Source: a virus
Lineage: Duplodnaviria; Heunggongvirae; Uroviricota; Caudoviricetes
Virus record (IMG/VR): IMGVR_UViG_2563367000_000012
Location: 1 to 11,487 of that record
Length of the DNA stretch: 11,487 nucleotides
Reading direction: 5' to 3' (one strand)
Shown: positions 1-3,000 of the stretch, piece by piece
Numbering within the stretch: the first letter of the stretch is position 1
Layout of the letters: each line of letters begins with the position of its first letter
Made by a program: the position numbers

Positions 1-3000
1 GATGTTGCTGCGCTCGATGCAAAATACTCGAGGGAATTAGCCGATGCGAGAGCTGAAAATGAAACTCTTCGCGCTGACGTTGCCGCTGGTCGTAAGCGCC
101 TGCGGATCAACGCCACCTGTCCAGGCTCCGTGCGTGAAGCCCCCACCACCTCCGGCGTGGATAATGCAACCGGCCCCCAACTGGCAGACACCGTTACACG
201 GGATTATTTCACCCTCAGAGAGCGGCTGATGACGATGCACAAGCAACTGGAAGGGGCACAGGACTATATCCGCACTCAGTGCCTGAAATAAGTTTTGTTG
301 ATGCGCCGTATCGTCGCTATATTCCCTCATTAACAGAGACCGCAGCCCGACAGGGAGACTCCTCTGCGCGAGTGTGCGGGGATAATTAAAAACGATGCAC
401 ACCGGGTTTTTACCGCGTTAATGATTCGCGGGTTTATCCCGGTGCGATGGTGGAAGAAACAGGAAGCTGTATTACAGAAAGTGCTACTACTGTATCCCGA
501 TGCGATGTATGTAATGTGAGTCAGATAATGGCACAGGATGTGGTGATGTGGCAGTCTGGAACACAGGATATATTGTCAGAATAAGACCCGTAGGAATAAA
601 AATGAAAAGACGCCTTTTACTACTTTTTCTGTTATCTGTCCTGGCAGTGGGATGCTCGCAGCAAAAAGCTGATGAGCCCCGGCAATTAGTGACGGTGTAT
701 CCACGATATCCGGAATATGCTGCAGCAAATTATATCAAGGGGCTGGTTGAGGTTAAGTTCGATATTGGTGCTGATGGGACTGTGACACGGATCGTTTTTC
801 TCCGCTCAGAGCCTCATAATTTGTTTCGTGATGAAGTGGTGAAGGCCATGGCGAAATGGCGATTTGAAAAGAATCGCCCCTGTCAGGGAGTGAAGAGACA
901 ATTTATCTTTACGCCGTCACGTCCTTGATGCTTCCAGGTAGAGAGGGGCTGGACGCAGGAGAAAAATGAAAGAGCCAGCGGTTATATTTTTGTCATGGCT
1001 GACGAGGAATGATGGAAGAAGGCGTTGTATGCCACACAACGCCTCACTGTTCATTTCTTCTTTTTCTCTGGTGGAACCCGATGAATAAGAGTTGCACTGG
1101 TTTCCGATGAGATGGCGATATACTCGGGCAAAGTATGCTGGCAGTTTTCCAACTGGTCAAAAATACCTGCTCTCGTCTGTTGCAATGCCTGCAGCATGCG
1201 GCGGCAATGCGCCTTGCTTTTACTAACCATCTTTCCTTCCTCTATCAGTCGCTGCGTGAACTCATCATGTAATACCAGGTAAATGCGGATGTTATCGGTT
1301 TTGGCTACGCAGCATAGTACAAAACGGACAGGTGCATCCCGGGACGGGGGAGGCGTCACATGTCCCTGTGATGGTTGTTCCGGGTAATGCACTGTGTGGG
1401 GCATAAAAATGTCCGATAATTTTACTTTCTACCGCAGTTAGTTGATTCGTTGGTCCTGGTAGCACATTGGGCGAGGATTTAAATGCCAGGCAACTGAAGG
1501 ATGATGTTGCAAGGGAGATAGCGAGAATATTTCTGATTTTCATTTGATGATGCCTCTGTGTGAAATGACGGTAAACGACGCACTTGTGCCGGCACATAAT
1601 AGCAAGCACCATAATAGATCAGATTCGATTCTTGCTGTAAGTGATAATTATTCTCGTTTTCGGGTCCTTTCCGTCGATCCAACAGGTTACGGGGCGGCGA
1701 CCTCGCGGGTTTTCGCTATTTATGAAAATTTTTAGGGAAAAATCAGATCCGTTTTTCTTCTTTTTAACTGATTGATTATCAATAGAATTTTAAAAATATA
1801 AAAGGATCTAACAAAGGCTGTTTTTGTTAGAAAACGCCATTTTCAGATCCTTTCTGGTTCCCGGGGGAGTGTATGAACGTCAATAAGAAAAAACTGGCCG
1901 ATATTTTTGGCGTTGATGTCAGGACCATCACCGCCTGGCAGAGTCAGGGGTTACCACTAGTTTCTGGTGGAGGGAAAGGGACTGAATCAGTTTTTGATAC
2001 AACTGCTGCCATTCAGTGGTATGCGCAGAGGGAAGCTGATATTAAAAACGAAAAACTCCGTAAAGAGATCGAGGATTTGAGGGCTGCCAGCGAATCAGAC
2101 CTTCAGCCCGGCACCATTGATTACGAACGTTACCGACTGACGAAGGCACAGGCCGATGCACAGGAGCTGAAAAATGCTCGTGAGGAAGGCCTTGTCCTCG
2201 AGACGGAGTTATTTACCTACATCTTTCAGCGAGTGGCACAGAATATATCAGGGATCCTTGTCCGTGTCCCTCAGACACTGCAGCGTAAATACCCTGATAT
2301 ATCACCCGTACATCTTGATGCTGTGAAAACTGAAATCGCGAAAGCATCCGATGTGGCTTCTGAAGCCGGTGAGAATGTGCGCAGGTGGATTGATGATTTC
2401 AGACGAACTGAGGGCGGCTAATTCTGCAGGAGCGATAGCAACCGGCCTCCTTGCGCTAAAAATTCCTGTCCCTCTGACGACAGTTCAGTGGGCAGATCGA
2501 CATTATTACCTTCCGAAAGAGTCATCTTACACCCCGGGGCGGTGGGAAACACTGCCGTTTCAGGTTGCCATCATGAACAGCATGGGGAATGACCGGATCC
2601 GCACTGTTAATCTGATTAAATCTGCCCGTGTTGGTTATACAAAGATGTTGCTGGGAGTGGAGGCTTATTTTATTGAGCATAAATCACGCAACAGCCTTCT
2701 TTTCCAGCCCACGGATTCTGCTGCTGAAGATTTTATGAAATCTCATGTGGAACCCACGATCAGGGATGTGCCGGTTTTACTCGATCTTGCACCGTGGTTT
2801 GGGCGTAAACATCGTGATAATACCCTCACGCTGAAACGTTTTTCATCGGGCGTGGGCTTCTGGTGCCTGGGCGGGGCTGCCGCTAAAAACTACCGTGAAA
2901 AATCCGTGGACGTGGTCTGCTATGACGAACTTTCCTCGTTCGAACCGGATGTCGAAAAAGAGGGTTCGCCAACCCTGCTTGGGGATAAACGTATTGAGGG

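Follow-up and report, generated by a model that had tools for sequence, protein, structure and literature searches.

A predicted exported four-cysteine protein encoded beside cos in phage 21-like prophages

Lambdoid phages carry moron genes between the lysis cassette and cos, as at bor in lambda and phage 21 and in the ybcV-ylcI region of DLP12, and the morons of phage 21 differ from those of lambda (PMC9119081). Here, we describe a minus-strand gene, ORF-A, which occupies the same slot in a tailed-virus sequence of 11,487 nucleotides (IMG/VR record IMGVR_UViG_2563367000_000012, positions 1 to 11,487; hereafter the window). Like the lambdoid morons, ORF-A appears to be small and autonomous and to encode an exported envelope protein; it is oriented opposite to the late operon and is present or absent independently of essential genes. 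It differs from Bor and DUF3950/YlcI in having no sequence relationship to either, and its product does not appear to be a lipoprotein.

Periplasmic proteins of Zur regulons (ZinT, AztD and PliG; Zcp/DUF4198 of Neisseria and ZepA of Anabaena) offer a second comparison, and new accessory proteins of this kind are still emerging (PMC12663993, PMC10957091). The ORF-A product is likewise predicted to be exported, and, as with Zur-regulon periplasmic proteins, chromosomal relatives of ORF-A adjoin znu/azt-type transporters, COG0523 genes, pliG or Zur-box-like operators. In contrast, it has no sequence similarity to ZinT, AztD, PliG, Zcp or ZepA, is much smaller (63 aa when mature), and presents four Cys as candidate ligands where those proteins present His/Asp/Glu; the copy in the window also has no Zur box, unlike Zur-regulon members. 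Overlapping frames and homopolymer runs, as in the frameshift genes lambda G/GT and dnaX, are found at this locus too. Unlike lambda G/GT or dnaX, however, the ORF-A frame is complete when compared with all its relatives, the overlapping frame (ORF-B) is not conserved, and fusions of the two are rare mutants. Precursors of the heat-stable enterotoxins STa and STb consist of a signal peptide, a pro-region and a Cys-rich C-terminal peptide. ORF-A resembles them in size (71-83 aa), layout and carriage on mobile elements, by analogy only, whereas its Cys spacing is different, homology is nil, and family members occur in chromosomes of non-enteric Serratia, Erwinia and Pantoea.

Layout of the locus and integrity of ORF-A

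Two overlapping ORFs lie on the minus strand of the window in frames one base apart (Table 1). The upstream frame opens at ATG 1612 or at the signal-peptide ATG 1543, from which translation starts with MKIRNILAISLATSSFSCLA, and closes at TAA 1292-1294; the second runs from ATG 1404 to a stop at 1051-1053 and encodes 117 aa. Both ORFs had been described in the initial annotation, together with an overlap of about 110 bp, a CCCCAC run and an A5/T5 run at 1405-1409. All of these were recovered: the shared stretch measures 113 nt, and the homopolymers on the minus strand are T5 (1405-1409), CCCCAC and, in addition, C5 (1346-1350). The locus had also been placed in a cargo slot, and ORF-A does adjoin a gene for a lipoprotein with a TonB C-terminal domain (annotated in phage 21), with a hairpin between the two. 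On its other side, ORF-A is the final gene before cos. The hairpin, the sole inverted repeat in 900-1760, is a candidate two-way terminator with weak T tails; the terminator scan gave it no score. An Rfam search of positions 1-2400 returned no RNA family matches, and folding of 1005-1300 gave structure not above expectation (z = -0.26). The NC-SV-like prophage sRNA svsR was considered and set aside, as its place is the 3' end of cI, with no relation to the ORF-A locus.

Table 1. Features of the ORF-A locus, in window coordinates
Feature	Position	Strand	Basis
Neighbouring cargo gene, 108-aa lipoprotein with TonB C-terminal domain	602..928	+	PF03544 E 7e-13; TIGR01352
Hairpin, 12-bp stem	1020..1044	.	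Between convergent TonB-CTD gene and ORF-A transcription unit
ORF-B, 117 aa, alternative-frame ORF	1051..1404	-	Pfam blank; only near-identical E. coli matches
59-codon tail of ORF-B (ATG 1230, SD-like GAGGAAGGAA), orphan ORF of doubtful status	1051..1230	-	
ORF-A, apparently intact 83-codon gene for a small, predicted exported Cys4 protein	1292..1543	-	Homologues, blastn, dN/dS, phage 21
C-terminal motif GTCDASPVPGCTCPFCTMLR (C62, C70, C72, C75)	1307..1366	-	Most conserved block of family
C5 run; C5-to-C4 deletion yields 165-aa fusions	1346..1350	-	P0009, P0017 and P0020 read ...CDASP/SRDAPVRF...
Signal peptide MKIRNILAISLATSSFSCLA, signal peptidase I cut predicted after A20 (CLA/FK)	1484..1543	-	Conserved A20/F21
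Shine-Dalgarno GAGG, 9 nt before ATG 1543	1553..1556	-	Sequence
Perfect 12-bp palindrome TGTGCCGGCACA, abutting candidate -10	1585..1596	-	Sequence comparison
Candidate extended -10 element TGcTATTAT	1596..1604	-	Inferred by eye from sequence
cosQ GGGTCCT (1662-1668) and right end of phage 21 chromosome (1691)	1662..1691	+	Phage 21 annotation, alignment

Comparative sequence evidence indicates that ORF-A is a complete 83-codon gene and not a broken one. Full-length homologues of 79-85 aa with the same C-terminus are present in seven genera: relatives in Salmonella, Klebsiella, Citrobacter and a second E. coli prophage type share 55-72% identity over 100% of ORF-A, and more distant homologues occur in Serratia, Erwinia and Pantoea. 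The relatives that fall outside this size range (99-104 aa) do so through N-terminal start-codon extensions, and all relatives terminate 4-7 residues past the LR of the Cys motif (...C-T-x-L-R). In blastn comparisons with the Klebsiella and Salmonella loci, the aligned DNA is exactly 1290-1551 and ends at the ORF-A stop. dN/dS for ORF-A is 0.10-0.20, with synonymous sites close to saturation. ORF-A is intact in phage 21 and six relatives, and the same arrangement, identical or near-identical in sequence, was found in 1222 of 5426 complete E. coli genomes (~22%), among which polymorphism is too thin for a selection test on either ORF-A or ORF-B. The family adjoins cos/Nu1 in two lambdoid prophage types whose downstream neighbours differ, is found on 66 Klebsiella plasmids next to a remnant of cos, and adjoins icd in C. 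koseri. A locus search with the Serratia subfamily alignment returned 17 loci, all in one genus. Two sequences, P0023 and P0024, were tried as diverged homologues and dropped, as they come from an error-laden assembly with 9% gaps even over the TonB gene.

The initial annotation had favoured, as one reading, a single gene of ~165 codons broken near 1395-1410, whether as a pseudogene, through a sequencing error or at a slippage site. The overlapping frames with T5, C4 and C5 runs in the overlap speak for such a break, as do fusion proteins of 165 aa in databases (P0009, P0017). These proteins, however, are near-identical E. coli variants (P0009 has 54 members) in which the frames are joined by a 1-nt C5-to-C4 deletion that wrecks the conserved Cys motif and removes three of the family's four Cys, and from their sequences they appear to be rare homopolymer-deletion mutants. 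Longer intact relatives spanning both frames were not found, there being no relative above ~85 aa in any genus, start-codon extensions aside, and no homology continues past the first stop in another frame, as DNA similarity to the relatives ends at 1290 and the second frame is unconserved. Phage 21 has the same sequence over the C5 run, and 1128 of the 1222 E. coli genomes (92%) are identical to the window over 1318-1378, which argues against a local sequencing error. The comparison with related prophages that had been proposed as a check thus goes against a frameshift, and we consider a broken gene extremely improbable.

The second frame and its 59-codon tail

ORF-B, from its pattern of conservation, is most likely not a gene. 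Its codons 1-37 are an alternative frame of the conserved C-terminus of ORF-A; among orthologues the frame has no conserved start (neither Klebsiella nor the second E. coli prophage type has a Met at the corresponding site), a stop interrupts it in S. salamae (Salmonella), and translation farther downstream in this frame is unrelated in 6 of 6 orthologous loci. An open second frame with a conserved start or slippery site, as expected of a programmed frameshift or an overlapping pair, was not found, and the proposal of two unusually overlapping genes is therefore not upheld, since what remains of ORF-B beyond the overlap is an orphan that is frameshifted in one lineage. ORF-B is annotated in PhiR57_1, the 117-aa protein cluster has 442 members, and gene callers often choose ORF-B over ORF-A. 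Long chance ORFs occur elsewhere in the window, antisense inside Rz (121 aa) and inside the terminase gene (233 aa), so an alternative-frame ORF of 117 codons is unremarkable here. The feature that appears to exceed chance is ORF-A, through its cross-genus conservation.

The 59-codon tail could still be a genuine cistron, starting at ATG 1230 after a 61-nt gap with no overlap, in a two-gene operon with ORF-A; it would then be a young orphan gene confined to phage-21-like prophages. A strong SD-like GAGGAAGGAA sits 3 nt upstream of this ATG and the ORF stops 7 nt short of the sole hairpin, features that make its translation possible. It is also called by PGAP in many genomes (WP_000253883.1), matches and defines phrog_4843, and is identical across seven phages. 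Against this, tblastn with the 59-codon ORF found those 100% identical copies in 7 phages and nothing else, no homologue was seen anywhere beyond ~95% DNA identity, and an inserted T at 1213 breaks it in an E. coli lineage with intact ORF-A, represented by three or more complete genomes (LR-31, TUM9803 and ECCNB12-2). Moreover, 5 of 6 substitutions in this ORF hit codon positions 1 or 2, PGAP elsewhere switches to competing plus-strand ORFs (40-60 aa) that cover this stretch, and the DNA 3' of ORF-A is unrelated in other prophages and genera. The ORF was also considered as an analogue of DUF3950/YlcI, to which similarity is absent. We regard a two-gene operon as unlikely; the tail is more likely a 3' untranslated part of the ORF-A transcript.

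Upstream elements and the predicted product

Copies of the gene in E. coli, Klebsiella, Salmonella and C. koseri have in common an SD-like purine run followed by ATCATCA[A/G]ATG, which points to ATG 1543 as the start rather than ATG 1612. A consensus promoter scan found no two-hexamer promoter upstream of ORF-A. The palindrome TGTGCCGGCACA stands where relatives have a Zur-box-like palindrome; sequences at the equivalent position are TGTTATTACATAAC in C. koseri, TGTTATTACATATC in Citrobacter sp. and GTTACGTGTTAACGTAAC in the second E. coli prophage type. A Fur-box-like cluster at 1637-1661 (14-15/19) was rejected as a regulator of ORF-A because it is part of the cos block 1636-1732, which lambda-like phages without ORF-A have at ~90% identity. 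The second prophage type also has this Fur-box-like element.

Judged by inspection, the N-terminus of the product has the features of a Sec signal peptide cut by signal peptidase I (MKIR / NILAISLATSSF / S-C-L-A/F), with an AxA/F cleavage consensus in the ORF-A product and A-x-A/F-Q in distant members, which read ALA/FQ or AMA/FQ. Residues A20 and F21 are invariant or almost so among 66 sequences. A lipoprotein reading of SFSC was rejected: Cys18 is limited to the phage-type subfamily and is Ala, Met or another residue elsewhere, which argues against a lipobox. The mature part (63 aa) terminates in GTCxAxPVxGCxCxFCTxLR, and in the same 66 sequences C70 and C72 are invariant and C62 and C75 present in at least 90%; His50 is almost invariant besides these four essentially invariant Cys. 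The family thus combines a conserved signal peptide, a variable middle and a conserved Cys-rich C-terminus. Searches with ORF-A and 26 family members against Pfam, NCBIfam, PHROGs and PDB gave nothing beyond signal-peptide noise, a literature search with motif strings or accessions returned no papers, and AlphaFold gave low-confidence models (pLDDT 47.6 with 15 sequences and 55.5 with 66). The initial annotation's exported Cys-rich product of unknown family is borne out by a minus-strand gene with a signal peptide and no match to a described family, and the product appears, from sequence, to be a member of an undescribed Enterobacterales family of exported four-cysteine proteins.

Zinc context, alternatives and significance

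Genomic contexts were examined for ~14 family members. ThrRS/CysRS paralogues, FolE2, a DksA paralogue, COG0523 and a Fur-family gene surround the Pantoea copy. A metagenomic copy and a znuCBA-like operon are arranged divergently, and the intergenic region that they share contains a 14/15 Zur core. The Erwinia copy has a Zur box (17/23) 120 nt upstream, with AztD (E 7.6e-136) and a ZnuA-family gene as convergent neighbours. Zur-like palindromes are found 20-45 nt before the ATG of the C. koseri (17/23) and Citrobacter sp. (16/23) copies, and one family copy follows a gene for a Cd/Zn-type P1B ATPase at a distance of 8 nt. The S. salamae copy is 95 nt 3' of pliG, and a perfect Zur core (15/15) precedes that pliG by 36 nt; in E. 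coli, Zur has been proven to target pliG (PMC4219657). Sites of this kind are expected by chance at ~0.09-0.19 per 8.2 kb. The Serratia operator is no more than 12/15 Zur-like, and it coincides with the -10 region. Within the window, a scan for the Zur 15-mer core at 12/15 or better gave no matches, the Zur 20-mer pattern with up to 3 mismatches matched once, at 10555 and far from ORF-A, and the Zur box pattern GAAATGTTATA-N-TATAACATTTC / TGWNAYRWTATAWYRTNWCA is absent from the ORF-A promoter. Zinc context is absent around the phage copies and the S. enterica TraT-island copy.

From these contexts and operator-like sites, we infer that chromosomal members are probably tied to the Zur response and that the family may have a zinc-related periplasmic role. 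A more specific and rather doubtful proposal is that the family is an unrecognised periplasmic zinc-handling mini-protein, captured and freed of its Zur operator by lambdoid phages such as phage 21. With the same reserve, members might act as Cys4 capture or hand-off factors with ZnuABC/AztABCD-type importers under Zur control, the phage copy lying beside cos. Alternatively, ORF-A may encode a disulfide-knotted exported peptide directed at the host or the envelope, with its zinc neighbours coincidental, for instance a toxin-like or serum-resistance-type moron or a periplasmic enzyme inhibitor; we give this a substantial chance, somewhat short of even. In an oxidising compartment such as the periplasm, disulfides are a more usual state for four Cys than a zinc site. 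Consistent with such a peptide are the pre-pro-like layout of the family (signal peptide, variable middle, Cys-rich C-terminus), the envelope or virulence cargo that surrounds copies in mobile contexts (Bor, an omptin, a SPATE autotransporter and an NEL effector in S. salamae; TraT and fimbriae in S. enterica; the TonB-CTD lipoprotein in the window), the nature of PliG as itself a periplasmic inhibitor, and the missing Zur boxes of the phage copies. However, at least six independent contexts, with a low chance expectation, connect members with zinc uptake or with genes or operators of the Zur type. Members also reside in chromosomes of Serratia, Erwinia and Pantoea associated with plants and insects, and this speaks against a toxin specific to mammals.

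Taken as a whole, the locus is quite probably explained by ORF-A as its sole real gene, an exported Cys4 moron of a Zur-linked family, with ORF-B accidental. ORF-A probably has a promoter of its own just inside cos, and the transcript would read on through a non-coding stretch of ~250 nt as far as the 1020-1044 hairpin. The 83-aa precursor would lose its Sec signal peptide after Ala20 to release a 63-aa, 6.6-kDa mini-protein, periplasmic or secreted, whose C-terminal C-x7-C-x-C-x2-C cluster may be a metal (zinc) site or form two disulfides. The phage copy would have lost a Zur-type operator, and ORF-A would serve as a lysogenic-conversion (moron) gene, occupying the slot that separates the lysis genes from cos. 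ORF-B would be an accidentally open frame over the GC-rich C-terminus of ORF-A plus the orphan downstream ORF.

Neither the phage 21 record nor any RefSeq E. coli record sampled annotates ORF-A, which is overlooked because gene callers favour the longer alternative-frame ORF or arbitrary small ORFs nearby. Annotation thus lacks a conserved 83-codon gene that phage 21, a classic phage, has in common with ~22% of complete E. coli genomes, and the frameshift observation itself appears to be a false alarm. ORF-A would define a compact family of exported four-cysteine proteins that has no described relative and is easy to test. The repeated zinc-starvation context leads to the hypothesis of a new zinc-homeostasis component and phage-borne fitness factor. 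If this is true, lysogens, which account for about one in five sequenced E. coli and include B2 pathotypes, would make the ORF-A product independently of Zur, which could help them resist zinc withholding by the host.

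Layout of the cos-proximal region

The window comes from a phage-21-like lambdoid E. coli prophage, of which it forms the late-region/cos junction. Positions 900-1750 are 100% identical to many E. coli chromosomes and 99.5% identical to phage 21 (OL657228); of 5426 complete E. coli genomes, 1222 carry this stretch at nearly full length. Two minus-strand ORFs, one base apart in frame, lie where the initial annotation had placed them: ORF-A, of 83 codons, and ORF-B, of 117. They overlap by 113 nt, and the T5 and C4 runs to which attention had been drawn are present, together with a C5 run, inside the overlap or at its edge.

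The prophage lacks bor: the ~520-nt segment that holds it in phage 21, after Rz and before the TonB-domain gene, is missing. Alignment pairs window 1-269 with positions 113-378 of the phage 21 locus (L001; 83%) and window 302-1000 with L001 903-1601 (97.9%). The TonB-domain lipoprotein (signal LAVGC) is little beyond a TonB C-terminal domain, and its PHROGs label, 'Rz-like spanin' (phrog_1267), looks like a mislabel. As a speculation, an envelope-located free domain of this kind might compete for the TonB boxes of other proteins and thereby keep out phages or colicins that depend on TonB.

Features of the region (window positions unless a compared locus is named)
Feature	Position	Strand	Remark
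Rz/Rz1 end	1-291
bor-less interval	292-601		versus phage 21 (L001) 398-1202
TonB-C-terminal-domain lipoprotein gene, 108 aa	602-928	+	PF03544
Hairpin	1020-1044
ORF-B	ATG 1404, stop 1051-1053	-	frame shifted one base relative to ORF-A
Last 59 codons of ORF-B	start ATG 1230	-	SD-like GAGGAAGGAA
ORF-A	ATG 1543, stop 1292-1294	-	signal-peptide-like start MKIRNILAISLATSSFSCLA
C5 run	1346-1350
Perfect 12-bp palindrome	1585-1596	-	TGTGCCGGCACA; abuts candidate -10
Candidate extended -10	1596-1604	-	TGcTATTAT; where relatives have Zur-like palindromes
cosQ	1662-1668
Right end, phage 21 chromosome	1691
Nu1	1873-2421		large terminase subunit gene next
Klebsiella plasmid region with ORF-A homologue	L004-L007, 3820-4252

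ORF-A and its homologues

In a protein search, ORF-A matched homologues along its whole length (100% of 83 residues) at 55-72% identity. Their sources are Klebsiella, Citrobacter, Salmonella (subspecies salamae and indica; enterica serovars) and an E. coli prophage of a second kind, and almost all are 83-84 aa long. Members from Serratia, Erwinia and Pantoea (79-85 aa, matched full-length) were added by a profile search over 1.8 billion representatives and by a search based on an alignment. The family shares a C-terminal motif, G-T-C-x-A-x-P-V-x-G-C-x-C-x-F-C-T-x-L-R, and every member ends 4-7 residues past its LR; the ORF-A stop codon is therefore the family's normal terminus. DNA similarity to the Klebsiella and Salmonella loci spans window 1290-1551, with nothing downstream. 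Pairwise dN/dS is 0.10-0.20 for pairs with unsaturated synonymous sites, the copy in phage 21, a plaque-forming laboratory phage, is the same ORF (98.8% identity), and 1128 of the 1222 E. coli genomes match the window exactly over a 61-nt stretch with the C5 run at its centre. At the sequence level, this comparison shows ORF-A to be an intact 83-codon gene under selective constraint and a stand-alone cargo gene beside cos. The initial annotation had proposed, as one of two readings, a gene of about 165 codons broken by a frameshift; the comparison with relatives that it had itself suggested refutes that interpretation, through the lengths of the homologues and the end of DNA similarity at 1290. 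ORF-A is absent from the annotation of all records compared here (PGAP-annotated genomes, phage 21 and PhiR57_1).

Proteins of 165 aa do occur in the databases (P0009, with 54 members, P0017 and P0020). They read ...CDASP/SRDAPVRF... and arise where the C5 run is one C short, which fuses ORF-A to ORF-B and costs them three of the four conserved Cys; these "repaired" proteins are evidently derived mutants. A few 82-aa database variants (P0025 and P0028) exit the ORF-A frame at a homopolymer and re-enter it ~15 codons later, bringing back the C-terminal CxCxxC part of the motif; they represent either paired homopolymer errors in the sequencing or frameshifts whose compensation was selected for.

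The predicted product has an evident Sec signal peptide with n-, h- and c-regions, and Ala20-Phe21 is invariant or nearly so in 66 sequences (A-x-A, then F-Q/K). Sec export with cleavage after Ala20 would yield a periplasmic or secreted Cys4-cluster protein of 63 aa (6.6 kDa, pI about 8.5). A lipoprotein (lipobox) reading was rejected because Cys18 is not conserved outside its subfamily. Residues conserved in the family are E39, F-Y-x-x-H (46-50) and the C-terminal C62, C70, C72 and C75. The earlier description of a probably exported, Cys-rich product of an undescribed family holds, with no match in Pfam, NCBIfam or PDB; the window's ORF-A protein likewise matched nothing in PHROGs. AlphaFold2 models are of low confidence (pLDDT 47.6 and 55.5, from 15 or 66 sequences), and their sole features are one helix at 32-46 and another, short one at the C-terminus. 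Two long, Asn/Ile-rich, eukaryote-looking metagenomic proteins (P0063 and P0065) carry 4-5 repeats of ...P-[IL]-P-G-C-N-C-P-K-C-T-x-L-R-N... that closely resemble the family's C-terminal PVPGCxCPFCTxLR but are without the first of the four Cys, by either convergence or shared ancestry.

The ORF-B frame

Codons 1-37 of ORF-B are the other frame of ORF-A's conserved C-terminus. In orthologous loci this frame has no start codon at the equivalent place and then continues into unrelated sequence, and in S. salamae it holds a stop codon, observations that also tell against the second proposal, two overlapping small genes. Searches with the 117-aa product turned up nothing beyond assembly variants and E. 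coli sequences nearly identical to it. Alternative-frame ORFs of such length are unremarkable here; the terminase gene in the window also holds a 233-aa antisense ORF.

The last 59 codons could instead be a genuine orphan second cistron: they are PGAP-called in some genomes (WP_000253883.1) and define phrog_4843. With tblastn at E up to 1, only 100% identical copies were found, in seven phages. In the most diverged E. coli lineage (LR-31, TUM9803 and ECCNB12-2, about 98% identical), one additional nt at 1213 breaks the 59-codon ORF after codon 6, and ORF-A is unbroken, with conservative changes S23P and V67I in all three and A64T additionally in TUM9803. Five of six substitutions within the 59 codons fall at codon position 1 or 2. 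PGAP calls over the same DNA vary by genome (59-aa and 48-aa minus-strand, 40- and 60-aa plus-strand ORFs), the phage 21 record annotates two plus-strand ORFs over the ORF-B DNA, and PhiR57_1 carries the 117-aa ORF together with a third-frame ORF. Position 1270 is T in the window and G in all eight compared sequences (L001, L003, L012-L014, L028-L030). This T creates a stop in the 60-aa plus-strand ORF (WP_000881610.1/WP_000881608.1; also annotated in the phage 21 record), which again suggests that none of the ORFs over 1051-1317 is a true gene. The ORF-B region matched no Rfam family, and its folding shows no gain over that of shuffled sequence (z = -0.26). Most probably ORF-B is no gene, the orphan cistron being an improbable, minor possibility, and 1051-1291 would be the untranslated 3' part of the ORF-A transcript, reaching the hairpin.

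Mobile and zinc-related settings of the family

A second lambdoid prophage type likewise has the ORF-A homologue in the slot from Nu1/cos to the lysis genes, but the next gene there is a DUF3950 gene in place of ORF-B and the TonB gene. Sixty-six Klebsiella plasmids, mostly conjugative, carry an unannotated homologue (64% identity), and before it stands a 43-nt remnant of a lambdoid cos that is 86% identical to window 1686-1728. The C. koseri homologue (L055, 4001-5719) directly adjoins icd, the attachment site of phage 21 and e14, and its position suggests a stranded prophage end. An S. salamae island of envelope and virulence cargo (L008-L011, 1-8252) holds a SPATE autotransporter, pliG, the 83-aa gene, bor, an omptin and a NEL-domain effector. 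Judging from the second prophage type, the Klebsiella plasmids and C. koseri, the ORF-A gene moves on its own.

A zinc theme, which was unexpected, recurs among other copies of the gene. The Pantoea copy lies within a cluster of ThrRS and CysRS paralogues, FolE2 (PF02649), a DksA paralogue, a COG0523/CobW GTPase and a Fur-family regulator, a gene set that is reportedly the classic make-up of Zur-controlled zinc-sparing islands; the Klebsiella plasmid copy adjoins a similar pair, a COG0523 GTPase and a 150-aa Fur-family gene. One metagenomic copy and a znuC/znuB/znuA-like operon are transcribed away from each other, and the intergenic region that they share holds a 14/15 Zur core; another family copy comes 8 nt after a Cd/Zn-type P1B ATPase gene. 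A 17/23 Zur box lies 120 nt upstream of the Erwinia copy, the only gene that it could serve there, and the convergent neighbours encode AztD (NF038015, E 7.6e-136) and a ZnuA-family protein whose gene has its own 19/23 box. In two Citrobacter copies, one of them that of C. koseri (L055), Zur-like palindromes (TGTTAT-TAC-ATAAC) scoring 16-17/23 precede the ATG by 20-45 nt; one of the two copies is divergent from a FecI/FecR/TonB-dependent-receptor cluster. The S. salamae copy (65% identity to the window protein) is 95 nt downstream of pliG (E 1.7e-57 to PDB 4DY3), which has a perfect 15/15 Zur core 36 nt upstream; in E. coli, pliG is an experimentally established Zur target (PMC4219657). Zur-like sites are expected by chance at 0.09-0.19 per shuffled 8.2-kb locus. 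An S. enterica copy in a TraT/fimbrial island is a counter-example, and no zinc context was seen for the phage copies.

The Serratia copies are further counter-examples. Across 17 Serratia species, a conserved upstream block TTGGCA-N15-TATAAC comes with a palindrome, GTTATAAC, that is only 12/15 Zur-like and coincides with the promoter; CTTGGCA-N15-TATAAC(G)TATC is invariant or nearly so (L031-L047, about 3955-4000). The Serratia homologue and an Opp/Nik-type (SBP_bac_5) ABC transporter operon are oriented divergently. One locus titled Pseudomonas lundensis (L033) is probably a mislabelled or contaminated assembly, since it is 90% identical to Serratia.

The window, too, runs against the zinc theme, since no Zur box is present in it. 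The palindrome abutting the candidate -10 may be an operator with changed specificity; in the second E. coli prophage type, GTTACGTGTTAACGTAAC stands at the equivalent place. Sequences resembling a Fur box occur in the window only at 1637-1661 (14-15/19; 0.16 expected in shuffles), an AT-rich palindrome, GTGATAATTATT, just left of cosQ. It was rejected as a regulator site for ORF-A and is probably packaging-related, because it belongs to the cos block common to lambda-like phages.

From genomic context, we tentatively assign the family to the zinc-limitation response, a possible reading that falls short of probable; the product would most plausibly be a small periplasmic zinc-binding or hand-off factor, and the phage copy, its Zur operator lost, would provide lysogens with this protein under another form of control. 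The chief functional alternative is a disulfide-knotted peptide that acts on the envelope or the host and has nothing to do with zinc; it agrees with the Bor, TraT, omptin and TonB-domain neighbours and is a serious contender, likewise at somewhat less than an even chance. The family is new and undescribed and of a familiar kind, phage cargo or small periplasmic accessory protein, and does not represent a new kind of system. Its product appears to be a conserved, under-annotated small secreted protein, whose possible link to zinc homeostasis is testable.
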